A program made the translations under genes and the position numbers. A stretch of 43,865 nt of DNA from Escherichia phage vB_EcolP_P433.1. Below the pieces are notes generated by a model. That model was not told the DNA's origin. It did not search any database and saw nothing but the letters and a program-made list of their open reading frames with translations. The DNA lies in the sequence record MN384978.1; one strand, given 5' to 3'. The first letter of the stretch is position 1, and the number at the start of each line of letters is the position of its first letter. Below are positions 6,838 to 41,027 of the stretch, piece by piece.

Positions 6838-6860
6838 CCCTCCTATAGTGTCCAGTAAAT
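6838..6860 (-). promoter_or_regulatory. phage RNAP promoter ATTTACTGGACACTATAGGAGGG
   Basis: Read as reverse complement on the plus strand; 23-nt match to the SP6-type core GACACTATAG; upstream of the first tailspike gene. Confidence 0.75.
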
Positions 6861-6889
6861 TATAAGACACTGATACATAAAGCTATGTA

Positions 6890-7087
6890 TTAATTGTATC
6901 CGCGTTCTAGCGAAAGAATGTACAAACCTAATTTTGTAGCGTCAGGCTTACTGAAGCAGACCTTATCGTCCACCTCGTAAACTGCCGTCAGCGTCGGCTT
7001 CAGTGGCCTTACCTTTGGAGTCTCTGGTAACTCCGTCTGACACCCTGAAGTGATCAGCGAACCAATCAGCAGGGTTGTCGCTAGCAT
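6890..7087 (-). CDS. small lipoprotein, candidate o-spanin (65 aa from the internal ATG)
   Basis: MLATTLLIGSLITSGC is a signal peptide plus lipobox-like Cys, followed by a Pro-rich stretch (LPETPKVRPLKPT); GAGG RBS before the ATG at 7087; lies in a different frame overlapping ORF 6963-7184. Confidence 0.4.
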   Translation of the reverse strand: MLATTLLIGSLITSGCQTELPETPKVRPLKPTLTAVYEVDDKVCFSKPDATKLGLYILSLERGYN

Positions 7088-7176
7088 GATTCGCCTCACT
7101 CTGTGCCTCCTTCTCTTCCTTCTTCTTCTTAGCGGCAAGCAGCAGACCAATAAGGCCTGCCAATAACTCAAGCACC

Positions 7177-7326
7177 TTATTCACAAGTGATTACTTGGCA
7201 TACCACGTCAGTGACGGAACCTTCCGTACCTTCACCAAGGTCTACACCAAGACCTACAGAGACAAGTGCAATCACCAGTGCAATCAATGCACCTACCACC
7301 TTCTTAGACTTAAACAGCTTTTTCAT
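7177..7326 (-). CDS. small membrane protein (49 aa, MKKLFKSKKVVGALIALVIALVSVGLGVDL...), possible holin/antiholin or spanin N-terminal part
   Basis: Not in the ORF track; ATG at 7326 preceded by AGGGAG RBS; one clear transmembrane helix; immediately downstream of the endolysin gene. Confidence 0.4.
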   Translation of the reverse strand: MKKLFKSKKVVGALIALVIALVSVGLGVDLGEGTEGSVTDVVCQVITCE

Positions 7327-7434
7327 TGCATCTCCCTTTCCATTGAGCTAGCAAATCCGAGTAGTTCTGCCAATCCTCATAGTTACCTGCCTCGGCAGCT
7401 TGAGCAACCATGCGCTCGCACCATTCAATACATC

Positions 7435-7797
7435 TTACCATCGTGCACACCCATCACGTACATCAATATGGGTGAAGGAATTATACTTACCAATACCATA
7501 CTTGCCTTGGTATTTACTAGTAAGATACTTATGCACTTCAGATGGTGAGATGCCAGACACTTTAATATCAGCAGCCTTACCAGTAAGATGCATAGAGTTC
7601 TTGGCCCCGCCCACCTTAGCATTGTGCTTGGCACAGCGATGACCAGAGGTAATAACCACAGGAGCACCAAAGTGCTCACGAACATCTGTGACTACCTGTA
7701 GTAACTCAGCATCAACAGTGGATGTACCGCACCCACAACGGCAAGCGAACTCTTTACGCTTGAAGTATTTGTTAAGCACTATACTACTCCTAGGCAT
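7435..7797 (-). CDS. endolysin, peptidase M15 (zinc D-Ala-D-Ala carboxypeptidase-like) family
   Basis: FKRKEFACRCGCG...ITSGHRCAKHNAKVGGAKNSMHLTGKAADI matches the Peptidase_M15_3 signature. Confidence 0.8.
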   Translation of the reverse strand: MPRSSIVLNKYFKRKEFACRCGCGTSTVDAELLQVVTDVREHFGAPVVITSGHRCAKHNAKVGGAKNSMHLTGKAADIKVSGISPSEVHKYLTSKYQGKYGIGKYNSFTHIDVRDGCARW

Positions 7798-7830
7798 TGC
7801 CCGTCTAATTACTAACGAGAGATTATATTA

Positions 7831-8118
7831 TCACTCAGCGGGGGTAACAGCAGTTACTTCCATGGTAGTGGCATCCCATGGTGACTCAGGCAGTGCATCT
7901 CGTGCTACAGCGATATACAGCGAACCCTCTGCTTTCTTCACAGCAACCATGGCACCTTTTTGTTTACCAGAAAGGTGGTGGATGTTAATCGGGTGCGCTT
8001 TAGATTTAAGGTCTGCCTCTGCTACCACCGGTAATGGCAGTGCAGTTGCAATAGTTTGAACATCCTTAACACGGAAGGATTGCCCGGTTACAGTGTTTGC
8101 ATCTCCATACTTAGCCAT
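7831..8118 (-). CDS. hypothetical protein (96 aa)
   Basis: Start placed at the internal ATG at 8118 (MAKYGDANTV) because of the AAGAGGAG RBS; track ORF extended to 8199. Confidence 0.45.
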   Translation of the reverse strand: MAKYGDANTVTGQSFRVKDVQTIATALPLPVVAEADLKSKAHPINIHHLSGKQKGAMVAVKKAEGSLYIAVARDALPESPWDATTMEVTAVTPAE

Positions 8119-8134
8119 ATCTATTCTCCTCTTA

Positions 8135-8547: not shown

Positions 8548-8570
8548 TCCTTCTATAGTGTCCAGTAATT
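8548..8570 (-). promoter_or_regulatory. phage RNAP promoter AATTACTGGACACTATAGAAGGA
   Basis: Read as reverse complement; overlaps the terL stop codon; followed by a 130-nt AT-rich leader. Confidence 0.7.
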
Positions 8571-9300
8571 AATAAGTCCTTGAAATCCTTGCAGAAATGG
8601 TGTTTCGATTGGAAGACTTACTCCGGTAATTTTGCCCATACACTCGCCGCTGCATCGCCACAGAAGTGTTGGTTACTTTTCGCTCAGTCCCGTAATCTCC
8701 ATAGAGCATGGCCCTGCGGAGGTGAGGTGTGTTCATAGCTTGGATGTAATCGCGCATCTCTTGCGCTCTGAGGCGATTAATCCGTGTAACCTCATCATAG
8801 TCTATCTGAGAAGTTAATTGCCGTATAGCGCCGTACAGAGCGTCTAAGCGGTCATCGTGCCGGAGGCTGTTCTTCTCGATCGTGATGTTCGACATTTGAT
8901 TGAAAAGGCTATAGGACATGCGTAGCTCAAGCGGATAGTTCTGTACTGACTCAAAGTCAGACTTGACCATCTCAGCATTGAAGATGAGCCTGTGGGCCGC
9001 CATGAGTGGCTCCAGTGTCTCAATGATACGCAACTCTTTCTGTCCTGTGGCGTAATCCTCTTCCAGCGTTACAGGCCACTCTCGTTCAAAGTACGGCTTA
9101 ATTACGGCCTCAAACGCGCCATGACCGAAGTTTTTCTCTATGAATACCTCTTTAACACCCGCCTGCTTTGCGGACTGCACAATGCGATTCAGGGACGATT
9201 CGCGGTATCCACCCGGTACACCGAAGCACTGATACACGTAAATGAATGTGCCGTGCAGGAAGACAATCGCTACACCCGTTTCGTCCCCGTTCTTACCTCC
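8569..9300 (-). CDS. terL: terminase large subunit, exon 2 (nuclease domain, 243 aa)
   Basis: Frame begins GGKNGDETGVAIVFLHG, i.e. mid-way through the conserved nuclease motif, with no ATG or RBS of its own; in frame with exon 1 if the 9301-10046 insert is spliced out. Confidence 0.7.
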   Translation of the reverse strand, partial: GGKNGDETGVAIVFLHGTFIYVYQCFGVPGGYRESSLNRIVQSAKQAGVKEVFIEKNFGHGAFEAVIKPYFEREWPVTLEEDYATGQKELRIIETLEPLMAAHRLIFNAEMVKSDFESVQNYPLELRMSYSLFNQMSNITIEKNSLRHDDRLDALYGAIRQLTSQIDYDEVTRINRLRAQEMRDYIQAMNTPHLRRAMLYGDYGTERKVTNTSVAMQRRVYGQNYRSKSSNRNTISARISRTY

Positions 9301-9826
9301 CGGTTTGAACGTGACGTGCGAGCCAACCCTTGTGGTGTTTACGCAAACCACGTGCCACCTTACGCATATTCTGAGGTGTTAGGTTGTGCTCTTTACAGAA
9401 GTCAGTAATGCAAGTTACAAGAAACTCTTCACCATCTGGAGAAGTGAATATGTAATCTTTGCCAGTACCTTTGTTGTAAGGTGTCATGCCTTTCTTGAAC
9501 TCAGTAGCAACAGACAAGTGCTGTCCTTTCTTTATTTCAGTGGCAATACTTATGCGTTCACCTTTCTCGATGTTACCTGCTTTGCGATAACCACCTTTAC
9601 CCTTATTCCAACCAATGTTGTCATGTGGGCGTAGCTTTTCTTCTAGTGCATAACACTCTTCTTTGCTACCAGTGAATAAGATAACGTACTCGCGGCCATC
9701 ACAAAGACGGCCTGCGCACTTGTGCTCTCTCATACGCTTCTTAATATCGGAGGTTACACCAATATAACCTTGCATTACATCAGTTTCACCAACAACACGA
9801 ATATGATAAACTTTATGCTCTGTCAT
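9293..9826 (-). CDS. GIY-YIG homing endonuclease (177 aa) encoded inside the terL intron
   Basis: KVYHIRVV...GYIGVT...RMREH GIY-YIG module at the N-terminus; NUMOD3-like repeats (ISIATEIKKGQHLSVATEFKKG); AGGGAG RBS before the ATG at 9826; stop codon lies 8 nt inside terL exon 2. Confidence 0.8.
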   Translation of the reverse strand: MTEHKVYHIRVVGETDVMQGYIGVTSDIKKRMREHKCAGRLCDGREYVILFTGSKEECYALEEKLRPHDNIGWNKGKGGYRKAGNIEKGERISIATEIKKGQHLSVATEFKKGMTPYNKGTGKDYIFTSPDGEEFLVTCITDFCKEHNLTPQNMRKVARGLRKHHKGWLARHVQTGR

Positions 9827-11213: not shown

Positions 11214-11515
11214 TAATTATCCTCTTTTGTAAACTGAATGATCTTGCCACTAGATGCCTCTCGGATAGCCTTGAGACGCTTAGATAGCTTGGACTCTTCC
11301 TGCTGTGCAGCAGGTGTAGCTGTAATTCCATTATCAAGAACCCACTTACACATGGCACCAATGTCCTTACCGGATACTAAGTGTAGTGCTGCATCTGGGT
11401 CTTCTTCTATAGTGTCCAGTATTGCCTGTGCTTTCTTATTAAAGATCTTGGTAATAGCACCATGCAGAATGCCAACCTCATCTTCTGTAGCTGCATGTTT
11501 ATTGTGTACGCTCAC
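11213..11515 (-). CDS. terS: putative terminase small subunit (100 aa)
   Basis: Assigned by position between holin and terL as in T7 (gene 18); GTG start with AGGAGA RBS; no motif-level support. Confidence 0.5.
   Translation of the reverse strand: MSVHNKHAATEDEVGILHGAITKIFNKKAQAILDTIEEDPDAALHLVSGKDIGAMCKWVLDNGITATPAAQQEESKLSKRLKAIREASSGKIIQFTKEDN
11402..11424 (-). promoter_or_regulatory. weak phage-promoter-like sequence CAATACTGGACACTATAGAAGAA inside terS
   Basis: Matches the consensus from -13 to +6 but diverges at -17 to -15; lies inside the coding sequence. Confidence 0.4.
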
Positions 11516-11701: not shown

Positions 11702-12664
11702 CTATGCAGTAATCACGTTAACAGACATGTGGCAAGCAGGTACACCCTCAGAGAAAGTAATTACACTACCATTAATTTGATATGTAGACATAGGTTGGAA
11801 TAACCCATCTAAGTACACATCAATGTGCTTGAATGCCACTCCTAAGTTCACTTCAGTAGTGCCTTCCTCTAAATCTTTATTGAACTCGATGAAGGCATTA
11901 GGTGCTGAGGTTGCAGTGCGACTACCAATAAGTACGTAGACTTCTGTGCCTCGCATAAGTGGTTCAGCAAAAGTAATAGTGCTATTAGCCACAGTAACAG
12001 CCTTGGCTAGTTCATGCTGCAAAACACCATTCAGGTACACTAAGGCATCATCAAAAATATAAGGTGGGCGAATTACAGTCTCGCCACCTGCCGCAGTAGT
12101 AAACCAAGGTACGGTTCGGTGTGCAATACCAGAGGTCATGCCTGCTTTCAATCCAGCAATAGCCAAATCTTGCTGGTTGTTCCAGTCTGTATGCTTCTTG
12201 TCAATGGCATCAAGTTGTCCCAAGTTGACTGCATCACCCGGCTCTGTGCCATCTGCAAGGTTTGTAATCTTATTACCACCCCATGACACGTTCTGCTTAA
12301 CGAAGTAGCCTTCTGGGTAAAACCCATCTAGAATCTCTTGGGTTATCTCTAGGATATGAATAAAGGAGCCATTTAAGGACTTCATATCCAGAGCAACACC
12401 GCGGTCAAACTCTGCATATGGGTACTCCTTTTGCACCACCCTTCGAATGCGGAACTTCAAACCCTCAACTGGTGCTACATCAAAAGTAATCTGGTGTGTG
12501 CCAGATAATTGCCAACCAGATGTGATCTCTTCCCAAGATCCAGCTTGGAAAAATTCTACTGTCACATCTGAGGCACGAAGATAACCTTTCTCCCTACCAG
12601 CAAAGCTAAAGGGATAGGTGACTTGCGTACCATCTGCTGTGTGTTCTGTGAAAGTATAACTCAT
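11702..12664 (-). CDS. tail-fibre adaptor protein with T7 gp17 N-terminal-like domain (320 aa)
   Basis: Motif GGNKITNLADGTEPGDAVNLGQL typical of podophage fibre N-terminal domains; follows the internal virion proteins; too short to be a full fibre, so probably anchors the two tailspikes. Confidence 0.7.
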   Translation of the reverse strand: MSYTFTEHTADGTQVTYPFSFAGREKGYLRASDVTVEFFQAGSWEEITSGWQLSGTHQITFDVAPVEGLKFRIRRVVQKEYPYAEFDRGVALDMKSLNGSFIHILEITQEILDGFYPEGYFVKQNVSWGGNKITNLADGTEPGDAVNLGQLDAIDKKHTDWNNQQDLAIAGLKAGMTSGIAHRTVPWFTTAAGGETVIRPPYIFDDALVYLNGVLQHELAKAVTVANSTITFAEPLMRGTEVYVLIGSRTATSAPNAFIEFNKDLEEGTTEVNLGVAFKHIDVYLDGLFQPMSTYQINGSVITFSEGVPACHMSVNVITA

Positions 12665-15600
12665 CAGTCCTCCAATAAGTCTACACTGGCTTTAGTCATC
12701 TGACCTACACCAATAGTATTTGCCAAAGGAACAAGGCGACGCACCTTGTCCACCAATTGCCTCGTAGATACATCATCATCACCACTGGCATACTTAACCA
12801 GTGCTTGTGACAAATTAAATGTATCACCGATTACGCCAGCACCCGCTACCAAATCGCCGAATCCTTGCTGACGGAAACCCATACGTCCAGGTGCTTGCAT
12901 CATAGCGTCAGGCATTAACCCAAAGGTGGCCAAAGCATCACCAGCAAGACCAAAACCTGCAACTTGTGGTAGTTTATTAAAGACACCCATAGCGATGTTC
13001 TGTGTCTCAAACTTGTCCCTCAAGAACTTGTCTCTGTCTTCCCGACCTATTGCTTGCATCTGCATCTGTAATGCATAAGATGCATAACCTAGCAAGGTGG
13101 ACCATGCAAGTATCTGTGCAGCCTTAATCTTATCACCTCGTAAATCATGGATTAACTGTTTCTCAATAGAGACAATAGAGAATGACTTAAACTGTGTTAA
13201 TGCCTTTCCCCACCATTTATTCATCCAGATACCTTCGTCGCCGATGAAGTTACGTTGAATAAGACGACCTGACATTCTTCGCACAGCAACACCCACTATC
13301 TCTCTCAGGTCTGGCTCCATAGCATCAAAGTTCATCATACGAACCTTTTCTCCATTGTACTCAGCGTACAGTGGGTTATCATCAAAGTGACGTTTAAGTC
13401 TCTTCATGACATCTTCGCTCAGGCCTACCTCTTCAAGGTCTGCTTTAGGTAATTGTCGCTCACCCATCAAGTGTTGCTTTAGTCTCTTGTTGATAGAGCG
13501 AGCTACAATTTTCTCTGAGCCACCTTGTACTGCTTTAAACCCAGAGAGAACCGTGTTGATTCGACTACCCATAGATAACCCATTATCTATAATAGCAGAC
13601 AGCTTACCTAGGTTATCTGCAGTTTCTCCAAACTCATCATGACGAACGTTCCATCCTGTGAGCCAGTTATCCTCTCCTATATAACCTAAGAGTTCCTCCA
13701 TTTCTCGCAGTTCAGGTTCAAGCAATTCACCTTGAGCCGTGCCACCCTTACGGGCCGCTCTTGAACGTAAGAACTTCGTGGCAGGTACAGACTTCAGCAC
13801 AGTGCCTAACCCCATCTTAGAGATTGCACGTGCCAGTTCTGGTATCTGAGCGAAGCCCATCTGCCCTAATCGTAACAATCCTGTAATCTCACGGACACGT
13901 CGAGTGCCCCTGACAATCCCAGAGTTAGGGTCGGCGTCAATAGTGTTACCGTAAATTAGTTTAACGGAATCTCTGAGCATCTCTGCTTCAGCCCTAAGCT
14001 GTTTGATTGCCTTAGCATTTGACCCAGCCATATTGCGACCTGCGCGTTCTGCGGCATCTATTGCATTCAGCACAGATTGGCGAGTAGGGAAACCCATGGC
14101 AGCCAATGCAGCGCCACCTGCCGCCTCTTTGCCGTAGTTCTCAGCCAACTCTCCTACGTTGGTGTTAAGTAAATCCTGCACCTTCAAACCACCGTATTCG
14201 GCTTGCGTATTAATACCCATGCTAGCTTTAGCTCGATTCGATACTGATTCAGCCATTTCTGCTAATTCCGTGCCTTCAATGAAATTATCAATGATGTGGT
14301 CCGGTACTCCTGCTTTCTTCAGATCCTCAATTAGTTGAGCCTGTTGCTGCTGAGACACCACTCTATCGAATGCAACACGGCTAGAGAGAGTAGAGTCAGA
14401 TGCGCGAATATACTGTACCTTGGCTAGTGCATCCGCAGCTTTCTTACCAAGTTTGTACTTGCCTGTCTGATAACCTTTAGATAGCAAGTGAATGACAGCT
14501 TCACTGCTACCTAACTTGTTAACTGCCTCCGTAACCTTGATACCATCATAGATAACTGGAATATAATCTTTAGCTGATTGCACATTCTCGAATCCATGCT
14601 CACCTGCTTGCTTACGAAGCTCTAGTGCTTTCTTGAGCTTATCTGCGATACCTTCGGCTGCAAGTTTAACACCACGAGGTGTATCTTCTGGTATGCCACG
14701 AACAATTGCGGTATAAATCTGATTATTGAAATCTCGTGTAGTTGCAGGGTTAAGATAGTCTACCGCACGTAGGTTGTTATCTTTGATGTATTGAGAGAAG
14801 CCATCATTGTACCTATTACGTTCGGCATGACGGATAAGGTTGCCATACACATCTGATAAGATAGAAGCTGTCTTACCTTGATATGCACCACCTTGAGCAT
14901 TTTCAAGCAAACGAAGACCCAGACCTCTGAACACAGGGTTTTCTGAGTTAAGAATTACAGAAGACACTGAACCTAGGCCTTTAAGATTAATAGGCCGCAC
15001 CTCTGACTGGTATGCTTCTCGTGCCAAGTCATCCATAAGTTCTTCCAGATTTTTAGATAAGTCAAACTGTTCACCTGCAATATCTGAACCTTCAACACGT
15101 TTAGCACCAACAGAGTCGTCTGCTCGTTGCTTAATTGCATCTTCTGCAACTTGTTCAGCATGTGTTTCAGTAGGTGTTTTCTTACGTTCGGCACGGAGTG
15201 CATCTACTACATCGCGCACTGCACGTGACATCTCCACCTTACGTGCTGGTGCGTCTAAACCCAGTTCCTTTATTTGAGCCTCACGAGACAGTGAAGAGAA
15301 CCTTTTAAGTTCCTCCTTGGCCTTGCCTACGTTATTTATACGAGACAACTTAGCATTCAACTCATCAAGGCGAGCTTGTAAATCTGCCAGTGGTTCATCA
15401 AACCTACGTGCTAATGCTTTCTTCTGAACATCCAAATCCAATCTGTCAGCAGCAGATTTAGGCGCACCCTTAGCAGCGGCAGCTTCTGCTACAGCATCTA
15501 TTTTCTTCCCTTTGAGTGTTGCTGCTTCTGCTTCAAGTTGACGTATCTGCTTCTTCAGTTGCCCTTTCTCACTAGCACTCATTCTTACCGACGCATTGGC

Positions 15601-16467
15601 CTTCAAGTTGTCTGTATGAGAGAGAATTGCCATGTCTGCATCTACCTCTCTCGCACGAAGTGGTTCGTAATTACGAGCAGCCATATAAGCATCATACTCC
15701 ATAGCCTCCCGTACAGCACGAGCAGCAGATGAGTCAAATTCATCAGCACCTTTTACTACAGTATCTAAGTCATCAATTACAGTATCTGCTTGTTCTGTAG
15801 CTGCACGAGATCCAGCACTGGATATGCGCTCCCTAGTTAAAGCACCAATAGTGCCACCCATGATCATACCAAAACCAGCGGCAGCTAACACATCGTCTAT
15901 CCCTCGCTGGTAATCACCCTGTGCCAGTACCGCCTCTAGTGCGGCATTTTCAGCACCTGACAGAGCAGCAGTCTTGATAATTCTACCCAGACGCCCTACT
16001 TTGACAGCACCAGCTACAGGCGCAGCCACGAGAGAGGCAGCCCAACCTACAGGGTCAAGGATGCCAGCAGCAATCTGCGCACTGAAGCCTGTGAAACCAT
16101 TACGTGCTAAGATGTCTGCCCTGTCTTTATCAGCAGCAGCATTAGACATACGGAATTGCAACTCTTCTGGAGACTTCACATCCTTAACTATGTCTTTAGC
16201 TATTTCATACCCATACAACTTAGATAGTTCATCTTTAGTTGACTCAGGTACTTCATAACCTTCTTGTTCAGCAAACTCTGTAGTGTGACGCTCATAGGCA
16301 CGTTGTCCACCATACAACGCCCACTCACTTTCTAGTGCTGTTTGAAATACTTTATCCTTGGACCTCTGCGCTTCAGCCTTGCGCTCGGCCTCAGCAACTT
16401 GAGAGAAGGTAGGCGGTAACTTGCGTTGAGTCACCGCCACCCAGTTTTGGTTAATACTATCAACCAT
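12664..16467 (-). CDS. large internal virion / ejection protein, gp16-like (1267 aa)
   Basis: Size and position match T7 gp16; Ala-rich with long predicted helical segments. Confidence 0.7.
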   Translation of the reverse strand: MVDSINQNWVAVTQRKLPPTFSQVAEAERKAEAQRSKDKVFQTALESEWALYGGQRAYERHTTEFAEQEGYEVPESTKDELSKLYGYEIAKDIVKDVKSPEELQFRMSNAAADKDRADILARNGFTGFSAQIAAGILDPVGWAASLVAAPVAGAVKVGRLGRIIKTAALSGAENAALEAVLAQGDYQRGIDDVLAAAGFGMIMGGTIGALTRERISSAGSRAATEQADTVIDDLDTVVKGADEFDSSAARAVREAMEYDAYMAARNYEPLRAREVDADMAILSHTDNLKANASVRMSASEKGQLKKQIRQLEAEAATLKGKKIDAVAEAAAAKGAPKSAADRLDLDVQKKALARRFDEPLADLQARLDELNAKLSRINNVGKAKEELKRFSSLSREAQIKELGLDAPARKVEMSRAVRDVVDALRAERKKTPTETHAEQVAEDAIKQRADDSVGAKRVEGSDIAGEQFDLSKNLEELMDDLAREAYQSEVRPINLKGLGSVSSVILNSENPVFRGLGLRLLENAQGGAYQGKTASILSDVYGNLIRHAERNRYNDGFSQYIKDNNLRAVDYLNPATTRDFNNQIYTAIVRGIPEDTPRGVKLAAEGIADKLKKALELRKQAGEHGFENVQSAKDYIPVIYDGIKVTEAVNKLGSSEAVIHLLSKGYQTGKYKLGKKAADALAKVQYIRASDSTLSSRVAFDRVVSQQQQAQLIEDLKKAGVPDHIIDNFIEGTELAEMAESVSNRAKASMGINTQAEYGGLKVQDLLNTNVGELAENYGKEAAGGAALAAMGFPTRQSVLNAIDAAERAGRNMAGSNAKAIKQLRAEAEMLRDSVKLIYGNTIDADPNSGIVRGTRRVREITGLLRLGQMGFAQIPELARAISKMGLGTVLKSVPATKFLRSRAARKGGTAQGELLEPELREMEELLGYIGEDNWLTGWNVRHDEFGETADNLGKLSAIIDNGLSMGSRINTVLSGFKAVQGGSEKIVARSINKRLKQHLMGERQLPKADLEEVGLSEDVMKRLKRHFDDNPLYAEYNGEKVRMMNFDAMEPDLREIVGVAVRRMSGRLIQRNFIGDEGIWMNKWWGKALTQFKSFSIVSIEKQLIHDLRGDKIKAAQILAWSTLLGYASYALQMQMQAIGREDRDKFLRDKFETQNIAMGVFNKLPQVAGFGLAGDALATFGLMPDAMMQAPGRMGFRQQGFGDLVAGAGVIGDTFNLSQALVKYASGDDDVSTRQLVDKVRRLVPLANTIGVGQMTKASVDLLED

Positions 16468-16501
16468 GGTACCTCCTAGTTAATGTCATTCATAAAGGCA
16501 T

Positions 16502-16517
16502 GTCTCACATGTGAGAC
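16502..16517. repeat. palindrome GTCTCAC-AT-GTGAGAC (18-bp perfect with flanks)
   Basis: Read directly; lies between the stop of the 981-aa gene and the RBS of the 1267-aa gene, flanked by the conserved GTTATACTCAAGG and CCTTTATGAAT boxes. Confidence 0.6.
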
Positions 16518-16534
16518 AAACCTTGAGTATAACA

Positions 16535-19480
16535 CTAGCTCAGTTTAATCCTACCAATCTGAGCATTAGGCACTAATGCGCCTTTCTTTGGAGGATACAC
16601 TTGCATCCATCCATCTTTACCAATCTGGTTGTAGATAGACTTATTAACGAATGCCTCTGACATTTGACCAGAGAACTTGACATACATAGAGCCATCCTCT
16701 CGTGTTTCCACTTCACTAATCTTAGGGACTGCACCACCGCTCTGTGCTAGGTTGTAGGCCTCTGCTCTGCGTACTAAAAGGGCCGGACTACGTTTACCTT
16801 CTGTGGATGCAGTAGATAGCATTTCGATGAACCCATCTGTAAACTTTCCAGCCTTGAATGCGGCGTAAGCCTTAGGTGCATTTTGGATACCACCTTTGCC
16901 TAAGTTATAAGATAAATCCATCAACCCACGTTGCACACCTGGATGCATGTCTTCAAAAGACACAGCCCAGCCTGCGGTACTAGGCACGTGGCTTTTCAAG
17001 TCTTGTTGCAGTAAGCGCATAGCGCGTTCAGGGGTTAACTGCGACTGTCCCGGATTGAATGGAACTTTGTCTGTACCAATCATAATGTACCCGTTCTTCT
17101 TCTCTTCGTCCGTAAGGAAATGACCATACCCTACAGATTGACCGTGTGCATCTTTGTAAGGTGTATAAACACCAGCTACTCTGTCAAAACCCACATTGGC
17201 ACTGTTCTCAGCTTTGGCTACATAATTATAGAAGTCCATATTATTCCTCTTATACCCAAACTCAAAGTTTGCTGGTAGGTTCTCACCTGATGCAAAGGCT
17301 GGTGACATTAAGAAGTCAGCAATCCCACGTGATCCTACAGTTTTGGCTGTAGTCTTTGCAGGCGGTTGTGCTTGGTATCCACCTGCACCCCACATCCTCA
17401 TTTGCTGTGCTTCAAAATTCTTACGCCCCTCATCCCGTGATTTAACTTCTGCATCATACCGTTGCTTAAGTAAGGATTGCCCTTTGATTTCAGACAAGGG
17501 CATTGCCTGTGTAACAGGTACACGACCAGAGCCTGCACGTATGGTAAAGAGTCCACGCTGCGCATCTACATCAAAATACAAATCCCCTTCTTCTAAGCCG
17601 CCTGATGCATCAAGAAGTGCTTGCTTGTTGTTATCCATATATTGACGTAGTGCCAGAGGCAGGTCGTTCTGGTTTACTCCTATAGTGTCACCTAATGTGC
17701 GAACATCACCTTTCACCAGAACACCTTGGGTAAAGAAACCCTCAGATAGCTGTGTATACTGGCTAGTCAAGTAGGATTTAAGATGACGTTTAATCGTGTC
17801 ATTATTATGGCCTGCAACCTTCATTGCTCTCGCAATTGTACTGGCTTCCTCCAGCATAATGTCACGACCCATCTCGCTCATGTTATCTCCACGAGTAAGC
17901 CAACTACCCCCTGCCACATCACTGACAACCCCATCTACATCCTCATTCAGTTCTTTAAGTACAGAACCTTGTAGTCTCTCTCCGCGAGAGGCATTCTGTG
18001 CAAACTCGATAGCTTGACCTGCATTATACCCCATGCGAGTTGCTAAGTCGTAGTTCTCTACAAAGGCATACTCCTTATCTCCCATGACAGCACGACGTGC
18101 ATCTTCTGGGATAGAGTCACGCGCTCGCATAATAGTCTGTAATGCTTCAGGCTCAACCTTCATATCTTTAAGGTTGGCAGAGGATAACTGCATAAGCGAC
18201 GAATATCTTTCCTTAATGATTGGGTCTTCAATAAGTTGTTGCCCCAGTTTAAGATAACGCATCTGCTCGTACCTACCACGAATAGCTTCAGCTTGTTCTC
18301 CGGTTGCACCAGTGCGGGCAATTTCATCTTCTGCCAACTTAGTATAAGTGGTAACTAATGCCTCTGCGTAAGCCTTCCTGTCATCTTTGCTAATGTCCTG
18401 CAAACCTAGAGGGGAGTCAGATTCTCCTCGTTTAATGAGGTCTTCCAGTTTTGCTGCCTCTGCATTAACCTTAGCTTGCCTATCGAAGATAGCTTTGATT
18501 TCACTATCAGACCAAGCAGTACCCCCGGTCAACTCATTGTGATTCTGCATTACCTGAAGTAACTCTTCACGAGTAAGTTGCCCTGCATCGAATGCCTTTA
18601 TAGCAGCATCCTTCTTCTCGAAGAGGGCGACCTGATTCTGTGCAGCCCAAGTCCTATTAGCTTGAATTTCTCCAGTTTGCAAAGCACCAACACGGTCGTA
18701 CAAAGAGACACCCTTATCATCCACCAGTGCTTTGGTGCCCTGAATAAGACTATCATCTCCTACTGCCGCCCTATCAGATGCAATCTTAGCAACCATTTGA
18801 TCAAACTCAGGTTTACTAAGACCCATTGCCAGTGCTTCTTTTTGTAGCTGAATGAGTGCTGCACCAGTGGCATCAGGTGCTACATCCTTTGTAGCCATGA
18901 TAATACGAGCCTGCATAGATTGCATACGCGCTTCTTCTTCTTGACGAAGTTTAGCCTCTGCTCTCGTAGCGGTGATTCGAGGTTGCTGCTCCATGAACGC
19001 GTTAGTGACAATCCTCATAGAATCCTTGTCACCACGAAGCTCTGGATAGCTTTGCCACAATCTATTTTGTACCTCATTACGAGATTGAACTACATAGTTT
19101 TCCCAATCTTCGTCACTGCCTTGAAATCGCTGTGCTTCTGCCTGTAGAGCAGCTGTCTGTGCGATTACATCATTTTGCAAACTAACCAGCATATGAGCAC
19201 GAGCACCACCTACTGTTGCATCCTCAGATGGCACCATACCAGATAATGCCCTGTCCATCTGGCGTACCTTATCTTCCTCAACCTTCTGATTAAGGATTCC
19301 AGTAGTAACATCAGCTACACTACTAGCTGCTTGAATAAGGTCTTCGATAAATCTACTACCGGAGTTAGAAGCCACGCCAGCATCAACACCACCCACTTGC
19401 TGGGGTGCAAAAGTCATGACATTAGGGGAAGTAGCCCGCACTTGTGGCAGTCCTTGTACTGCTTGTCTCTCAATTGCCAT
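16535..19480 (-). CDS. internal virion protein with C-terminal lysozyme-like (T4-lysozyme/GH24-type) domain (981 aa)
   Basis: Around aa 750-910 (about 16750-17235) the segment AENSANVGFDRVAGVYTPYKDAHGQSVGYGHFL matches the T4 lysozyme catalytic region (E...YKDTEGYYTIGIGHLL); position corresponds to T7 gp15. Confidence 0.7.
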   Translation of the reverse strand: MAIERQAVQGLPQVRATSPNVMTFAPQQVGGVDAGVASNSGSRFIEDLIQAASSVADVTTGILNQKVEEDKVRQMDRALSGMVPSEDATVGGARAHMLVSLQNDVIAQTAALQAEAQRFQGSDEDWENYVVQSRNEVQNRLWQSYPELRGDKDSMRIVTNAFMEQQPRITATRAEAKLRQEEEARMQSMQARIIMATKDVAPDATGAALIQLQKEALAMGLSKPEFDQMVAKIASDRAAVGDDSLIQGTKALVDDKGVSLYDRVGALQTGEIQANRTWAAQNQVALFEKKDAAIKAFDAGQLTREELLQVMQNHNELTGGTAWSDSEIKAIFDRQAKVNAEAAKLEDLIKRGESDSPLGLQDISKDDRKAYAEALVTTYTKLAEDEIARTGATGEQAEAIRGRYEQMRYLKLGQQLIEDPIIKERYSSLMQLSSANLKDMKVEPEALQTIMRARDSIPEDARRAVMGDKEYAFVENYDLATRMGYNAGQAIEFAQNASRGERLQGSVLKELNEDVDGVVSDVAGGSWLTRGDNMSEMGRDIMLEEASTIARAMKVAGHNNDTIKRHLKSYLTSQYTQLSEGFFTQGVLVKGDVRTLGDTIGVNQNDLPLALRQYMDNNKQALLDASGGLEEGDLYFDVDAQRGLFTIRAGSGRVPVTQAMPLSEIKGQSLLKQRYDAEVKSRDEGRKNFEAQQMRMWGAGGYQAQPPAKTTAKTVGSRGIADFLMSPAFASGENLPANFEFGYKRNNMDFYNYVAKAENSANVGFDRVAGVYTPYKDAHGQSVGYGHFLTDEEKKNGYIMIGTDKVPFNPGQSQLTPERAMRLLQQDLKSHVPSTAGWAVSFEDMHPGVQRGLMDLSYNLGKGGIQNAPKAYAAFKAGKFTDGFIEMLSTASTEGKRSPALLVRRAEAYNLAQSGGAVPKISEVETREDGSMYVKFSGQMSEAFVNKSIYNQIGKDGWMQVYPPKKGALVPNAQIGRIKLS
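17675..17697 (-). promoter_or_regulatory. SP6-type promoter CATTAGGTGACACTATAGGAGTA inside the internal-virion-protein gene
   Basis: Identical to the SP6 consensus from -15 to +1 (TTAGGTGACACTATAG), unlike the other promoters here which carry CTG or CCG at -12 to -10. Confidence 0.5.
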
Positions 19481-24652: not shown

Positions 24653-24675
24653 CCCTTCTATAGTGTCCAGTAAAT
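24653..24675 (-). promoter_or_regulatory. phage RNAP promoter ATTTACTGGACACTATAGAAGGG (capsid promoter)
   Basis: Read as reverse complement; lies between the scaffold and capsid genes. Confidence 0.8.
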
Positions 24676-29487: not shown

Positions 29488-29510
29488 TTGTTCTATAGTG
29501 TCAACTAAAT
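29488..29510 (-). promoter_or_regulatory. phage RNAP promoter variant ATTTAGTTGACACTATAGAACAA
   Basis: GTT at -12 to -10; overlaps the stop of the phosphoesterase gene. Confidence 0.6.
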
Positions 29511-32675: not shown

Positions 32676-32698
32676 CTCTTCTATAGTGTCCAGTAAAT
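32676..32698 (-). promoter_or_regulatory. phage RNAP promoter ATTTACTGGACACTATAGAAGAG
   Basis: Read as reverse complement; preceded 16 bp upstream by the palindrome at 32714-32729. Confidence 0.75.
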
Positions 32699-32713: not shown

Positions 32714-32729
32714 GTCTCACACGTGAGAC
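32714..32729. repeat. inverted repeat GTCTCAC-AC-GTGAGAC
   Basis: Read directly; begins 1 nt after the stop of the 72-aa gene and ends 16 bp before the promoter. Confidence 0.6.
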
Positions 32730-33950: not shown

Positions 33951-33973
33951 TTGTTCTATAGTGTCCAGTAATT
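33951..33973 (-). promoter_or_regulatory. phage RNAP promoter AATTACTGGACACTATAGAACAA
   Basis: Read as reverse complement; overlaps the 3' end of the 125-aa ORF, upstream of the SSB-like gene. Confidence 0.65.
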
Positions 33974-34413: not shown

Positions 34414-34436
34414 TCCTTCTATAGTGTCCAGTAAAT
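34414..34436 (-). promoter_or_regulatory. phage RNAP promoter ATTTACTGGACACTATAGAAGGA
   Basis: Read as reverse complement; about 70 nt downstream of the DNA polymerase stop. Confidence 0.75.
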
Positions 34437-37221: not shown

Positions 37222-37237
37222 GTCTCACGTGTGAGAC
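37222..37237. repeat. inverted repeat GTCTCAC-GT-GTGAGAC (18-bp perfect palindrome 37221-37238)
   Basis: Read directly; starts about 10 nt after the stop of the 68-aa gene, preceded by GTCAAGG and followed by GCCTTTCAT. Confidence 0.6.
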
Positions 37238-37454: not shown

Positions 37455-37701
37455 AAGAGATTGCTACCTCTACTTTACTACCTTCCCAATGACCGTGACC
37501 ACCATCATTGCTTAGTGTAGTGCCTACACCCCAGCCAATACCATTATCGTTCACATAAATAGTTCGACCTTCTTGATAAGATACAACAAAGACCATGCCT
37601 TTAGCGTTAAAACTTACAATACGCATACGGCCTTTAAATGTGCCACGACGTAACTGCTTCTGAGCACGCTTGATACAGCGTTTGATTGCACGTTGTTTCA
37701 T
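37447..37701 (-). CDS. hypothetical basic protein (84 aa)
   Basis: AAGGAG RBS before the ATG at 37701; Arg/Lys-rich N-terminus. Confidence 0.45.
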   Translation of the reverse strand: MKQRAIKRCIKRAQKQLRRGTFKGRMRIVSFNAKGMVFVVSYQEGRTIYVNDNGIGWGVGTTLSNDGGHGHWEGSKVEVAISYV

Positions 37702-37711
37702 GATTAACTCC

Positions 37712-38377
37712 TTAAATATTCACGTAGGTTTCTTCAGTAACGATAGGGCAATAGACTAGGTGAGCTTCATTGACAATGAAGCCAAGTAAACCCTGCTTCT
37801 TGATAATGTGATTAACTATAGCTGCAAAGTTCTTATTAGCTACATTACGAGGCGCACCCTGTTCTGTGATTGCATGGTCAATATCCATGATTCGCACAGG
37901 CACATTCGGATGCATCATAGCTTCGCCAATCTTCACCATAGCTTGCCCTGTGGATTTACCTAATGCACGAGTATTAAACTGTGTAACACCTAATGCAGTG
38001 CCACATAGCTTAATCATTTCACTTTGAGTCTTACCAGTGACTACATTGCGTCGCTCTTTCTTGAGTGTGGTGCGTGTACTACTCATAGGGTTATTGGAAG
38101 AGTTAAATACTTTCAACATCTGACTAGTGCAACGCGCACACACATGAGATTCGTTGACACTGTGTGTACAGGTGCATTGATGTGTTGGGTCTTCCACCTT
38201 CTCAAGGTATTTATGGACACAGGATTTAATGTAACCCTCTTCTACTTGGCTTTGTTGGTAACGAATATAGTATAAGTCCTTTGTTTTACTAATGACTACA
38301 CCTATCTCACGTTTGTGGTTGGAATATTTGTTTATGTTACGAACTTTGTCACCTACATTCAATACTAATTTATACAT
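37712..38377 (-). CDS. hypothetical protein with Cys/His zinc-ribbon-like motif (about 221 aa)
   Basis: HQCTCTHSVNESHVCARC cluster; start placed at ATG 38377 with GGAG RBS (track start is TTG). Confidence 0.5.
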   Translation of the reverse strand: MYKLVLNVGDKVRNINKYSNHKREIGVVISKTKDLYYIRYQQSQVEEGYIKSCVHKYLEKVEDPTHQCTCTHSVNESHVCARCTSQMLKVFNSSNNPMSSTRTTLKKERRNVVTGKTQSEMIKLCGTALGVTQFNTRALGKSTGQAMVKIGEAMMHPNVPVRIMDIDHAITEQGAPRNVANKNFAAIVNHIIKKQGLLGFIVNEAHLVYCPIVTEETYVNI

Positions 38378-38416
38378 AATCAATCTCCAGTTATTTAATG
38401 TACTTAATAAGAGCCT

Positions 38417-38432
38417 GTCTCACGTGTGAGAC
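38417..38432. repeat. inverted repeat GTCTCAC-GT-GTGAGAC with extended arms
   Basis: Read directly; about 20 nt after the primase-helicase stop; the transcript could form a stem of about 11 bp. Confidence 0.6.
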
Positions 38433-38453
38433 AAGCCCTGATAAATACACTAA

Positions 38454-40442
38454 TCAGAACTCACTTTCTTCATCGAAGCCGGTCTCTTCTATAGTGTCCG
38501 GTAAATCCGGTACTTCTTGTTGCCTTGCTTCCCCTGTATCAAATGACTTAGTACGGGCTTGTGGTTCCATTAAACGTCCGGTTTGAATGTCACCCTTAAG
38601 CATGACCTTGGTTCCAGTGTAGATACCTTGGTCGCGGTCTTTGACACATGAGATGTACGTGGTAGTCCTTTCATCAAGCGTTTCAGCTCTTGTATTACGC
38701 TCAATCCCCAAGGCGTAAGATGCCCAGAATCCGATAGCACCTGAGCCTCGGAAGTCAGAAAGGATAACTTCGCCACCTTCTTCGTGCTGGACTCGGTTTC
38801 CCGCAGGGCGAGTAAGGTGCGAGACAAGGAATATAGTAACTGGGTGTCTGTCTTTGATAGTACCAATCCGCTTGACGCATTCATCAAGTGCACCAACCTT
38901 CCCACCAAAAGCACGCTCATCTAATTTAATCCCCGTTAAGTTATCAATGATGATATTAGAAATACCCATAGCCTCAAACTCAAGGCAAGTCTGCTCTACC
39001 TTCTCCATTGAGTAGTCACCTTCTAGGTCAGCTACGAAGAGCTTCCCTGTATCAGCGACATAGTCAATGGCAGCATTAGCTTCTTCCTCAGTATAGTCGA
39101 ACACCTCGCGGTATCCATCTTCTTTCGGGTCGTTGGTTGGCGGTAGTTCAATACGCTTATCAATCCACTTGCCGATAAAAGCACGAGACACTTTGACCAT
39201 CGGGTCTTCTGTAGAAATAATGCCTACGGATTCACCGTGTTCTTCGATGAGGTGCTTAACCACTTCACGGAGGAACTCAGTCTTACCTACACCAGAGCCT
39301 GCGCCTACAATGATAAGCTGGTTCTTACGGATACCTAGCGTTACTTTGTTCAGCTTAGGCCAAGGCCATGACAGCCCTTGCTCTGGTCGTGCGGCCTTAA
39401 GTTTATCCCTTTGAGATGCAATAGATTTAATCTGGCTACCAAAGACTTCATCAGACGACTTGGCATTAAACCACGCATCTACAAATTCTTTAGCCTTGCC
39501 AGCCATCAATGCCTTATTGGCATCTTTGCACCCAGAAGGGTACTCAAGAATATAGGATTTGCCGGGAAAGAGGCGAGCCGCTTGTTGGTTCTGCTTCTGC
39601 CCTACTTCATCCCCATCGAAGCCCCAAATAATCTTCTTGAATTGGGCGATGTGTTCACGGTTCTGCACAATCTCTTCAAGGCAAGATTCACCCTTATTAA
39701 CAGACCATACGTGGTAGGGCTGGCCTTCCCACTTAGTGCCTTTGGCAGAATCAAGGAGCATCTGTTGTGCTGCTAGTGCATCAAGCTCTCCGCCTACAAT
39801 AAGCAAGCAATCCTTCCGTCTTCCCTTGTCTAACACGTGAGACAAAGTATTCATACCGAAAAGATCTTGCATACCAAAGAGCTTACCTAGGTGACCAAAC
39901 TTAAAGTCTTTAGGTAAGGTACGGCACTTAGCGCCTACTAGCTCACCTCTCTCGAAGCGTGGATAGTAATGCCGTGAGACTCTACCCTCTTCATCGTGTC
40001 CGACACGTACATCATACAATGCGCAAATGTCGCCGCGAATGTGTCGGGAAACAAGATTCTTACGCTTAAGCGTGAGGAACCATTCAACATCAAGTTTCCA
40101 CTCTGCTTCTTGGTCTGCCCTTTCTTGCTCATTCATGACCTCCCAACGGTCTTTCATACGCATACCACCAAGTGCGATGGCTCGCAGCTTAGGGTCGCTT
40201 ATCTTCCCTTCCCTCTCCATCTCTTTGAATTGAGAAGGTGTGTATTTTATGTTGCCAGTAATAGGCAACTCGGTGATCTCGATACCGCCGTCTGGCTTGT
40301 GGTAGTATGGCTTGCCATTATCATGGAAGTGACCACGGTTACAATAGCCAGCACCATCATCAAATATCATGAGATGGTTGCCGGATTTATCGTGTCCATT
40401 CTTCTGGCAAGCAGGGCACGGGATGTTATTAATAATAGCCAT
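38454..40442 (-). CDS. DNA primase-helicase, T7 gp4-like (662 aa)
   Basis: N-terminal zinc ribbon CPACQ...YCNRGHF; helicase Walker A GAGSGVGKTEF; acidic C-terminal tail ending in Phe (...TGFDEESEF) as in T7 gp4. Confidence 0.9.
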   Translation of the reverse strand: MAIINNIPCPACQKNGHDKSGNHLMIFDDGAGYCNRGHFHDNGKPYYHKPDGGIEITELPITGNIKYTPSQFKEMEREGKISDPKLRAIALGGMRMKDRWEVMNEQERADQEAEWKLDVEWFLTLKRKNLVSRHIRGDICALYDVRVGHDEEGRVSRHYYPRFERGELVGAKCRTLPKDFKFGHLGKLFGMQDLFGMNTLSHVLDKGRRKDCLLIVGGELDALAAQQMLLDSAKGTKWEGQPYHVWSVNKGESCLEEIVQNREHIAQFKKIIWGFDGDEVGQKQNQQAARLFPGKSYILEYPSGCKDANKALMAGKAKEFVDAWFNAKSSDEVFGSQIKSIASQRDKLKAARPEQGLSWPWPKLNKVTLGIRKNQLIIVGAGSGVGKTEFLREVVKHLIEEHGESVGIISTEDPMVKVSRAFIGKWIDKRIELPPTNDPKEDGYREVFDYTEEEANAAIDYVADTGKLFVADLEGDYSMEKVEQTCLEFEAMGISNIIIDNLTGIKLDERAFGGKVGALDECVKRIGTIKDRHPVTIFLVSHLTRPAGNRVQHEEGGEVILSDFRGSGAIGFWASYALGIERNTRAETLDERTTTYISCVKDRDQGIYTGTKVMLKGDIQTGRLMEPQARTKSFDTGEARQQEVPDLPDTIEETGFDEESEF
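38484..38506 (-). promoter_or_regulatory. phage RNAP promoter ATTTACCGGACACTATAGAAGAG inside the 3' end of the primase-helicase gene
   Basis: CCG sub-class at -12 to -10; lies within the last codons of the helicase ORF. Confidence 0.6.
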
Positions 40443-40660
40443 TAGTTCACCTTAATAGTTCTGGGTTGGTACGAGTCAGCTTTTCTACGCTTAGAGATAA
40501 ACTGCTTTGCATCACTTTCGGTGCAGAAGATAGCCTCTGTATCAGTATATCCAATAGGCATCATACATGTGACCCATATTAAGCCTAATACTTTACGTTG
40601 CACTATGTAACACTCTTGCCCGTGACTATTTAAACAGGTCTTGATTCTGTATTTAGCCAT
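40442..40660 (-). CDS. hypothetical protein (72 aa)
   Basis: ATG at 40660; its stop overlaps the primase-helicase start (TAATG). Confidence 0.45.
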   Translation of the reverse strand: MAKYRIKTCLNSHGQECYIVQRKVLGLIWVTCMMPIGYTDTEAIFCTESDAKQFISKRRKADSYQPRTIKVN

Positions 40661-40663
40661 AAC

Positions 40664-40792
40664 TTAGAACTCCCACGCTGCGCGTTTAGATGCACGGTCA
40701 CGGACAGGTTTATTCAGCTTCTTGCCTTTCTTCTGCCCTTCTTCCATGTCAAAACGGTTAGCTTTACGGGTCATCTTCTCAAAGTTACGCAT
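40664..40792 (-). CDS. gp1.1-like small basic protein (42 aa, MRNFEKMTRKANRF...)
   Basis: Not in the ORF track; GGAGA RBS before the ATG at 40792; the N-terminus MRNFEKMT and the length match T7 gene 1.1 product as remembered. Confidence 0.55.
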   Translation of the reverse strand: MRNFEKMTRKANRFDMEEGQKKGKKLNKPVRDRASKRAAWEF

Positions 40793-40817
40793 GGTTAAAT
40801 CTCCAAAGTGAGTTAGT

Positions 40818-40840
40818 CTTATCTATACTGTCCGGTAAAT
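40818..40840 (-). promoter_or_regulatory. phage RNAP promoter variant ATTTACCGGACAGTATAGATAAG
   Basis: G instead of C at -5 and a divergent initiation region; preceded 5 bp upstream by the palindrome at 40846-40861. Confidence 0.55.
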
Positions 40841-40845
40841 ACGAA

Positions 40846-40861
40846 GTCTCACATGTGAGAC
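40846..40861. repeat. inverted repeat GTCTCAC-AT-GTGAGAC
   Basis: Read directly; abuts the upstream edge of the promoter at 40818-40840. Confidence 0.6.
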
Positions 40862-41004
40862 AACCTAGGTCTGCCCTTCCTCTAAGTAGTAATAATAGGA
40901 AGGAAGAAGGTAATAGGTATTCCTAGGTAAACCTATATAACCTTTAATACCTATTATTTCCTTTTATATCCTTATCTTCCCTCCTCTTTCCCATCTCCGA
41001 TGGT

Positions 41005-41027
41005 TTCTCCTATAGTGTCCGGTAAAT
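41005..41027 (-). promoter_or_regulatory. phage RNAP promoter ATTTACCGGACACTATAGGAGAA
   Basis: First phage promoter downstream of the polymerase gene; CCG sub-class. Confidence 0.7.

Follow-up and report, generated by a model that had tools for sequence, protein, structure and literature searches.

K1E-type promoters, their triplet variants and the cognate RNA polymerase in the Vectrevirus genome of Escherichia phage vB_EcolP_P433.1

The nearest known counterparts of the promoters analysed here are those recognised by the single-subunit RNA polymerases of the phages K1-5 and K1E, of SP6 and of T7. Expression systems already make use of the K1E-type promoter and its polymerase (PMC6412113, PMC11880802, PMC13029058), and in PMC11880802 (2025) the K1E and SP6 clusters are separated by residues 748, 756 and 758 of the polymerase together with the promoter bases -12 to -8. 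The SP6 promoter (ATTTAGGTGACACTATAGAAG) carries G-G-T at positions -12 to -10, and the SP6 consensus on which an earlier, sequence-only reading of the DNA studied here had relied is correct, since most sites of the SP6 genome have GGT. T7 likewise encodes a single-subunit polymerase of its own and possesses several co-oriented promoters for it, including two closely spaced, off-consensus promoters directly after the polymerase gene (phi1.1A and phi1.1B) and a consensus promoter before the capsid gene, all of which have counterparts in the genome described below.

The sequence analysed (43,865 nucleotides, record MN384978.1, hereafter the window) is a complete, permuted Vectrevirus genome whose nucleotide sequence is about 90% identical to those of K1-5 and K1E. 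A search of IMG/VR with the polymerase returned 17 loci, mostly partial, and unannotated GenBank genomes of Vectreviruses were used for the comparisons instead. Searching the window for ATTTANNNGACACTATAGAAG with up to three mismatches identified exactly 12 matches against 0.06 expected, all of them on the minus strand, which is the coding strand; the motif is exact at four sites and carries one to three mismatches at the other eight. In a position-weight-matrix (PWM) scan of both strands, a check suggested by the sequence-only reading, the 12 sites score 24.6-38.2 bits and everything else scores 12.0 bits or less, the maximum in shuffled sequence being 16.9 bits. Such a gap between the 12 sites and the remainder leaves no room for hidden extra promoters or for any on the opposite strand, and chance matches among the 12 were thereby ruled out as well. 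The twelve promoters claimed from the letters alone are thus real sites and all were found where expected, except that the positions given were 2 nt low and omitted the strand; the common motif ATTTA-NNN-core-AAG does recur at all 12, but exactly at only four.

Nine sites are intergenic and three lie within genes, just 5' of the next gene block. A motif of about 23 bp (-17 to +6) that is repeated far above chance, co-oriented with the genes and accompanied by a cognate polymerase gene in the same genome is characteristic of single-subunit phage polymerases, and by these sequence features the 12 sites are promoters of the phage's own enzyme, with the G of TATAG as the predicted +1. The triplet at -12 to -10 is CTG at seven sites, CCG at the three nearest the polymerase gene, and GTT and GGT at one site each, exactly as had been assigned before. 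A pyrimidine occupies -11 in 11 of the 12, and the strict SP6 type, GGT with G at -11, is found only once.

Comparison with the relatives places this set precisely. Besides K1-5 and K1E, about 20 other genomes and contigs possess positional orthologues of 11 of the 12 sites, and K1-5 and K1E share with the window the same 21-23 bp promoter (ATTTA-CTG/CCG-GACACTATAG-AAG) at orthologous positions, the distribution of CCG, CTG and GTT, and a specificity loop with the same Ser (see below); Supplementary Fig. S3A of PMC13029058 gives a promoter list that is nearly identical. The 12 sites are therefore the already known K1E-type variant of the SP6 promoter, with C-Y-G at -12 to -10 as the genus-wide consensus. 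The SP6 promoter is identical to that of the window at -17 to -13 and -9 to +4 and the two genomes share their organisation and promoter positions, whereas SP6 and four SP6-like contigs have G at -11 at every tabulated site and the window mostly has a pyrimidine. Two differences from K1-5 and K1E were observed: their gene-10-internal promoter (ATTTTGCCGACACTATAG; ATTTTGCC…) is absent from the window in the PWM scan, and the window has an additional GGT site within gp35, since it carries a different gp35/gp36 module.

Downstream of the polymerase gene, P1 (41007..41027 (-), +1 at 41010; ATTTA-CCG-GACACTATAG-GAG; 36.1 bits) is the first promoter, and its triplet is CCG in 22 of 23 Vectrevirus genomes and contigs. 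P2 (40820..40840 (-), +1 at 40823; ATTTA-CCG-GACAGTATAG-ATA; 27.6 bits), just 5' of gene 8, has a core mismatch. P3 (38486..38506 (-), +1 at 38489; ATTTA-CCG-GACACTATAG-AAG), recovered by both motif and PWM, lies within the primase/helicase gene, at its 3' end, and the CCG is read there in frame as a codon for Pro (…LPDTIEE…). Then follow three CTG promoters: P4 (34416..34436 (-), +1 at 34419), 3' of the DNA polymerase gene and 5' of gene 15, whose upstream flank has been exchanged for unrelated sequence, with a breakpoint at the promoter itself, in several relatives; P5 (33953..33973 (-), +1 at 33956; AATTA-CTG-GACACTATAG-AAC), 5' of gene 16; and P6 (32678..32698 (-), +1 at 32681; 38.2 bits), 5' of gene 18. 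These three had been assigned to the structural and late region, but synteny places them in the DNA-metabolism block, with the DNA polymerase gene on one side and the exonuclease and ligase genes on the other. P7 (29490..29510 (-), +1 at 29493; ATTTA-GTT-GACACTATAG-AAC) precedes gene 23; the leaders of P5 and P7 resemble each other.

The remaining sites are P8 (24655..24675 (-), +1 at 24658; CTG), between the scaffolding and major capsid genes; P9i (17677..17697 (-), +1 at 17680; CATTA-GGT-GACACTATAG-GAG), within gp35 and at 24.6 bits the weakest of the 12; P10 (11404..11424 (-), +1 at 11407; CAATA-CTG-GACACTATAG-AAG), within gp39, in which CTG serves in frame as a codon for Leu; P11 (8550..8570 (-), +1 at 8553; AATTA-CTG), after the terminase genes; and P12 (6840..6860 (-), +1 at 6843; CTG), 5' of the tailspike genes. 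A candidate thirteenth, variant site (955..975 (-); ACTCA-TCT-GACACTATAA-GAG, with A at +1; 12.0 bits) is situated in the early region, 5' of genes 5 and 6 and the RNA polymerase gene. It is conserved in K1-5, K1E and SP6, its counterpart in phD2B switches core along with the promoter of that lineage (GCTACTATAA), and it appears as a candidate promoter in PMC13029058.

The polymerase gene (SP6 family; 41120..43747 (-)) encodes a protein 97-98% identical to the K1E polymerase, 85% to SP6 RNA polymerase and 35% to T7 RNA polymerase, in which the catalytic and loop columns are conserved. At the equivalents of T7 residues 746, 748, 756 and 758, its specificity loop (41459..41515 (-)) reads R/S/K/S against R/R/K/S in SP6, so that just one of the four base-contacting positions differs, Ser747, encoded at 41507-41509, aligning with T7 N748. 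Residue N748 reads -11/-10 in T7. The 19-residue loop is identical to those of K1-5 and K1E, which completes the loop comparison proposed earlier. At the N748-equivalent position, each of the 21 Vectrevirus loops examined has Ser and each of the four SP6-like contigs has Arg, and across five lineages this residue covaries with the bases at -12/-11: the lineages with Arg have GGT (SP6), GGG (phD2B) and GTG (K13PH07C1L), those with Ser have CYG (K1E type) and, in the distant phiEa1H, CCA. K13PH07C1L, with Arg, T at -11 and other loop changes, indicates that the covariation is no simple one-base rule.

The sequence-only reading had proposed a shifted specificity. The difference from the SP6 loop and its covariation with -12/-11 bear out part of this proposal, but GGT is not excluded. 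RNAP No. 2049, 98% identical to the window polymerase and with Gly in place of Ser at the Q758 equivalent of the loop, gave in vitro 3.5% signal on TATTTAGGTGACACTATAGAAGAG, about 2% on TATTTACTGGACACTATAGAAGAA and 0.18% on an unrelated promoter, transcribing GGT and CTG promoters about equally in an assay of low overall activity that covered, besides the unrelated promoter, GGT and CTG templates differing at +6 too (PMC13029058, 2026). GGT also occurs naturally in Ser-type genomes, namely at P7 in the No. 2049 genome and at P12 in two Vectreviruses (L010 and L022) that bear a foreign tailspike module. The specificity of the window polymerase thus looks broadened rather than shifted. Ser for Arg at the N748 equivalent may relax the need for G at -12/-11 and confer no exclusive new specificity, and the relaxed enzyme would then accept CTG, CCG and GTT as well as GGT.

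The triplet variants within the genome are probably mostly historical and not temporal classes. P1 and P2 have in common a palindrome-plus-promoter unit of about 45 nt, and their CCG would reflect a duplication of this unit just past the polymerase gene. The CCG of P3 would be set by the Pro codon in the helicase tail and the CTG of P10 by the Leu codon. The lone GGT is a Gly codon of gp35 that probably arrived with a gp35/gp36 internal-virion-protein module of SP6 lineage: the reading frame across P9i is TTA GGT GAC ACT ATA GGA (L-G-D-T-I-G), the site is orthologous to SP6 position 29410, and the mosaic module carrying it (12500..19000 (-), boundaries approximate) is 70-81% identical to SP6, is common to a subset of Vectreviruses at about 89% and has no nucleotide match in K1-5 or K1E. 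At P7, every one of the 13 full Vectrevirus genomes compared has GTT, a variant fixed genus-wide; SP6-like phages have AGT or GGT there. Ancestry, codon constraints and imported modules would together account for the apparent sub-classes better than early-versus-late timing. We assign a probability of roughly 0.7 to the account as a whole, i.e. a K1E-type promoter set, a specificity broadened through the Ser of the loop, and variants of mostly historical origin.

A strictly shifted, orthogonal polymerase that no longer reads GGT, with the gp35 site as a dead relic under coding constraint, would fit the separate clusters of K1E and SP6 in PMC11880802, the lowest PWM score of the 12 and a poor -17 to -13 region at P9i, the conserved LGDTIG motif that the site encodes, and the decay of the gp35 site at two synonymous positions in Vectrevirus LL11 (GGA GAT ACT ATA). 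It is nevertheless improbable, being the least favoured of the explanations weighed here, because the SP6-type promoter was at least as active as the enzyme's own CTG consensus with No. 2049 (PMC13029058), because GGT stands directly 5' of the tailspike genes in the two Ser-type Vectreviruses and, in the No. 2049 genome, 5' of gene 23, and because eight of nine sequences keep the gp35 site unchanged at each of its four synonymous third positions, that of the rare ATA Ile codon among them, although the adjoining codons vary. Distinct early/middle (CCG) and late (CTG) classes comparable to T7 classes II and III, differing in strength or regulation and timing expression, as the sequence-only reading had suggested, are unlikely too, but have more in their favour. 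CCG is restricted to the first three promoters past the polymerase gene, an ordering with a chance of 1/120 among the ten CYG sites, and the arrangement is stable over about 20 Vectrevirus genomes and contigs. It misses, however, the middle/late gene boundary: P4-P7, which are CTG or GTT, serve DNA-metabolism genes, and the sequence classes do not coincide with metabolism and structural blocks as in T7 but differ by a single C/T at -11. Viable phages show switches between C and T at -11 in promoters that are otherwise intact (K1E P11, L024 P8, L027 P4 and L010 P1), so that K1E and L024 each have CCG at a late position and L010 has CTG at P1. T7 has a lysozyme-type polymerase regulator; a tblastn search of the window with gp3.5, the class-switch inhibitor of this type, found no credible match, and the endolysin of the window is a Peptidase_M15_3. 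The duplicated P1/P2 unit and the P3 Pro codon reduce the CCG trio to effectively one or two independent events and can explain the genus-wide split. All Ser-type polymerases belong to a single shallow clade, with identities of at least 95%, so that shared ancestry alone can explain the stability of the split. Methylation or restriction at CCGG or by Dcm was considered as a reason for CCG and found no support.

Conservation at -11 bears on the same question. Pooled over promoters, a permutation test counted four minor alleles among 155 cells where about 15 were expected (P ~0.015), and none of the per-promoter comparisons with flank columns was significant; the stronger proposition of a selected -11 position, no more variable than the core, was dropped on these grounds. 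The sequences thus offer weak evidence of constraint at -11; the higher pooled conservation there than in the flanks would be compatible with C and T differing in function, and the choice between them may modestly affect promoter strength. Off-consensus promoters also occupy the first one or two places past the polymerase gene in SP6-like phages and other lineages, and the second promoter has a core mismatch in all four lineages concerned, which hints at a conserved functional distinction. Such a distinction might take the form of a two-class code enabled by Ser for Arg, in which C at -11 marks origin-proximal or first-entering promoters; this is somewhat less probable than the timing classes, and, if true, C-class promoters would launch replication-gene expression. 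More doubtful still is a role of P1, P2, their palindromes and the AT-rich 187-bp spacer as a replication-origin or genome-entry element, to which CCG would be tied in place of timing. The primary origin of T7 lies near phi1.1A/phi1.1B, and the analogy with P1 and P2 comes from there: the two are closely spaced directly after the polymerase gene and terminator, at a position resembling that origin, with non-coding AT-rich DNA between them, and the palindrome GTCTCACATGTGAGAC precedes both and occurs eight times in all against 0.13 expected, clustered in the replication-gene region. However, this is a proposal by analogy; P3 is also CCG but lies within the helicase gene, the palindrome is found 5' of the CTG promoter P6 as well, and SP6 lacks it entirely.

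The promoters themselves are of little consequence, the K1E type being known, and the CCG/CTG split would become relevant only if shown to tune replication-gene expression. Of greater interest for the engineering of orthogonal polymerases of the SP6 family is a single Arg/Ser difference at the N748 equivalent that tracks -12/-11 in five lineages. Since the Ser-type enzyme appears active on SP6-type promoters, a clean orthogonality of the K1E and SP6 systems is unlikely in that direction. The promoters also act as module junctions, and foreign modules thus carry in their own promoter variants.

With up to three mismatches allowed, the motif ATTTANNNGACACTATAGAAG has exactly 12 matches in the window, where 0.06 would be expected, and all of them are on the minus strand. 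A position-weight matrix was built from the promoter sites and used to scan both strands; the 12 sites score 24.6-38.2 bits and stand clear of the next best match (12.0) and the shuffled-sequence maximum (16.9). The promoter observation is thus correct and far above chance. The +1 positions of the twelve promoters, P1 to P12 in transcription order, are 41010, 40823, 38489, 34419, 33956, 32681, 29493, 24658, 17680, 11407, 8553 and 6843, all on the minus strand. The sequence-only reading had listed the right sites, and every triplet it gave at -12 to -10 holds, though its coordinates were 2 nt low and the strand was omitted. It had also placed the CTG promoters P4-P6 in the structural and late region, but synteny with K1-5, K1E and phD2B puts them in an interval bordered by the DNA polymerase gene on one side and the genes for exonuclease, endonuclease and ligase on the other. 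A further promoter close to the end of gene 10 (ATTTT/C-GCC-GACACTATAG), present at K1-5 9027, K1E 10207 and in the metagenomic genome encoding polymerase No. 2049, is absent from window positions ~37700-38000, where identity to K1-5 and K1E is just ~80%. A promoter-like site, GACACTATAA, is found at 955-975 (minus strand, +1 at 958), in the early region ahead of genes 5 and 6 and the polymerase gene; it has A where the promoters have G at +1, and it is conserved in K1-5, K1E and SP6. In phD2B its core is altered in step with the promoters of that lineage (GCTACTATAA); this points to a genuine site connected with the polymerase, perhaps an autoregulatory one.

The 43,865-bp window represents, in reverse orientation and circularly permuted, the complete genome of a phage in the genus Vectrevirus (SP6-like Autographiviridae, Molineuxvirinae). 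Over 7.9 kb that take in the polymerase, the helicase and the beginning of the DNA polymerase gene, identity is ~90% to K1E, K1-5 and numerous further phages of E. coli K1. All long ORFs lie on the minus strand, including the single-subunit RNA polymerase gene (41120-43747) and gene 6 (1-885), which continues past the low end of the window. Matches to the left (around K1-5 768) and right (around K1-5 44370) ends of K1-5/K1E are less than ~1 kb apart at ~2000-3000, so that the physical ends of the genome, their terminal repeat collapsed, fall at that point of the permuted record. Two tailspike ORFs (485 and 704 aa; 3162-6818, minus strand) are without nucleotide similarity to K1-5, K1E and SP6 except for short N-terminal adaptor stretches, and look like a different host-receptor module. 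The large terminase gene is split by an ORF at 9293-9826 (minus strand). K1E has the same arrangement, its ORF (gp40.5) carrying a homing-endonuclease annotation, and matches this segment at 98% identity; K1-5 and SP6 lack the segment.

The motif scan was repeated on K1-5, K1E and SP6, and an orthology table was compiled for 13 full Vectrevirus genomes and IMG/VR contigs. Essentially every Vectrevirus carries CCG at P1-P3 and CTG at P4-P12, with GTT at P7. The exceptions are CTG at P1 (L010), CCT at P2 (three contigs), CCA at P3 (L008), CCG at P4 (L027), P8 (L024) and P11 (K1E), and GGT at P12 (L010 and L022). In SP6 and four SP6-like contigs, every tabulated site carries G at -11, while -12 and -10 vary (AGG, CGT, GGG, GGA and so on). 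As the pattern is genus-wide, C-Y-G is the K1E-type consensus and not an oddity of this genome.

The polymerase was aligned with those of T7, SP6, K1-5 and K1E, with the invariant T7 R746 and G753 columns as anchors. At the four base-contacting equivalents of T7 746/748/756/758, SP6 reads R/R/K/S, whereas K1-5, K1E and the window all read R/S/K/S (specificity loop at 41459-41515, minus strand), so that the window's loop differs from SP6 at the 748 equivalent and agrees with K1-5. Ser occupies this position in all 21 Vectrevirus loops examined and Arg in 4/4 SP6-like contigs, while among distant lineages phD2B combines Arg with GGG, K13PH07C1L Arg with GTG and phiEa1H Ser with CCA. Two non-sister lineages with Ser thereby share C at -12 and a pyrimidine at -11, and Arg accompanies G at -12, a covariation which supports the loop as the source of the promoter difference. 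There is no simple one-base code, since K13PH07C1L has T at -11 with Arg, plus other loop changes.

The specificity itself, which had been proposed to be shifted, appears instead to be broadened. The No. 2049 enzyme is 98% identical to the window polymerase (856/873) and has Ser at the key position, with Gly at the Q758 equivalent where the window polymerase has Ser. In vitro, with activity expressed relative to T7, the SP6-type TATTTAGGTGACACTATAGAAGAG gave 3.5% and the enzyme's own consensus TATTTACTGGACACTATAGAAGAA about 2%; CTG variants altered at +2 and +5 reached up to 10.6%, and an unrelated promoter gave 0.18% (PMC13029058). The enzyme's activity in this assay was low, the TATTTAGGTGACACTATAGAAGAG and TATTTACTGGACACTATAGAAGAA templates also differ at +6, and CCG lay outside the template set. 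Natural GGT promoters point in the same direction, preceding the tailspike genes in two Ser-type Vectreviruses and gene 23 in the No. 2049 genome. The Arg-to-Ser change would then have relaxed the -12/-11 requirement without replacing it.

The history of the individual promoters bears on the odd triplets. P9, the GGT site at 17680, lies within the gp35/gp36 internal-virion-protein module, a ~6.5-kb segment (~12500-19000) that lacks nucleotide similarity to K1-5/K1E and is 70-81% identical to SP6; a Vectrevirus subset (CC1, R4596, G3A1, P3a, CrRp3, LL11) carries it at ~89% identity. P9 is in frame within gp35 (TTA GGT GAC ACT ATA GGA, L-G-D-T-I-G), orthologous to SP6 position 29410, kept in CC1, R4596, P3a and CrRp3, and decayed at two synonymous positions in LL11. 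The SP6-like segment and this orthology indicate that GGT was imported with an SP6-lineage module. Where P12 is GGT (L010, L022), the upstream flank is Vectrevirus-like (86-90%) and the downstream tailspike module foreign, its first ~90 nt matching an SP6-like contig at 92%; the upstream flank of P4 (34436 and upstream) is swapped for at least four unrelated sequences among relatives, with homology breaking exactly at the upstream edge of the promoter. Judged from these breaks, promoters evidently serve as recombination junctions between modules. P1 and P2 look like a tandem duplication, because both contain a ~45-nt unit consisting of the palindrome TGTCTCACATGTGAGACT, a short spacer and ATTTACCGGACA. 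The CCG of P3 encodes Pro, in frame, within the C-terminal tail of the helicase (…VPDLPDTIEE…), whereas SP6 has GGT there and reads …LGDTIEE…; the CTG of P10 is likewise an in-frame Leu codon, in gp39. The three CCG sites thus count as one or two independent events, one of them protein-constrained.

A strong intrinsic terminator (41089-41112, minus strand) immediately follows the polymerase stop codon, and 3' of it come a palindrome, P1, an AT-rich non-coding 187-bp spacer (40841-41006, minus strand), another copy of this palindrome and P2. The arrangement is analogous, in position only, to the primary origin region of T7 with phi1.1A/phi1.1B. The 16-bp palindrome, GTCTCACATGTGAGAC, occurs in 8 copies with up to two mismatches against 0.13 expected in the window (41032-41047, 40846-40861, 39828-39843, 38417-38432, 37222-37237, 32714-32729, 16502-16517 and 2203-2218). 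The copies are mostly intergenic and cluster in the replication-gene region, immediately upstream of P1, P2 and P6; K1-5 has 6 and K1E 8, whereas SP6 and phD2B have none. The role of the palindrome may be that of an RNA hairpin or of an operator bound by a dimeric protein. The leaders of many promoters also hold a short conserved inverted repeat within ~5-25 nt downstream (P1 at 40991-41003, P4, P7, P8, P12; CCATCGGAGATGG at P1 and GGGAGAAATGTCTCCC at P8 are examples), which would give the transcripts 5' stem-loops.

The positional sub-classes are real, and CCG and CTG had been suggested to mark early/middle and late promoters, respectively. Some functional distinction is favoured by the first promoters after the polymerase gene, which are off-consensus in SP6-like phages also, and by the second promoter, whose core is mismatched in four lineages (GACAGTATAG, GACACTATTG, GCTACTATGG, GCTAGTATAG). 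However, the split does not track the middle/late gene boundary, and CCG works at late positions of viable phages, such as P11 of K1E. T7 lysozyme is the factor behind the switch from class II to class III promoters in T7; a tblastn search of the window gave no credible match to it, and the endolysin found is a Peptidase_M15_3. History and coding constraint account for the sub-classes better than temporal classes do.

The evidence for selection on -11 is suggestive only. Averaged over promoters, -11 varies in 1-3% of genomes against 10-30% for many flank columns; per-promoter comparisons with flank columns are not significant, because many of these columns are also invariant at this shallow divergence. 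A pooled permutation comparing -11 cells with random columns from +9 to +40 gave 4 minor alleles in 155 cells against about 15 expected (P about 0.015; 0.07 for P1-P3 and 0.12 for P4-P12). The Ser-type polymerases form one tight clade of at least 95% identity, so that shared ancestry may also explain this stability.

PMC11880802 (2025) already keeps 'K1E' and 'SP6' apart as polymerase-promoter clusters on the basis of residues 748/756/758 and bases -12 to -8, and a nearly identical promoter list has been printed for a related metagenomic genome (PMC13029058, 2026). The twelve sites make up an already known promoter set, the K1E type, in a Vectrevirus genome.
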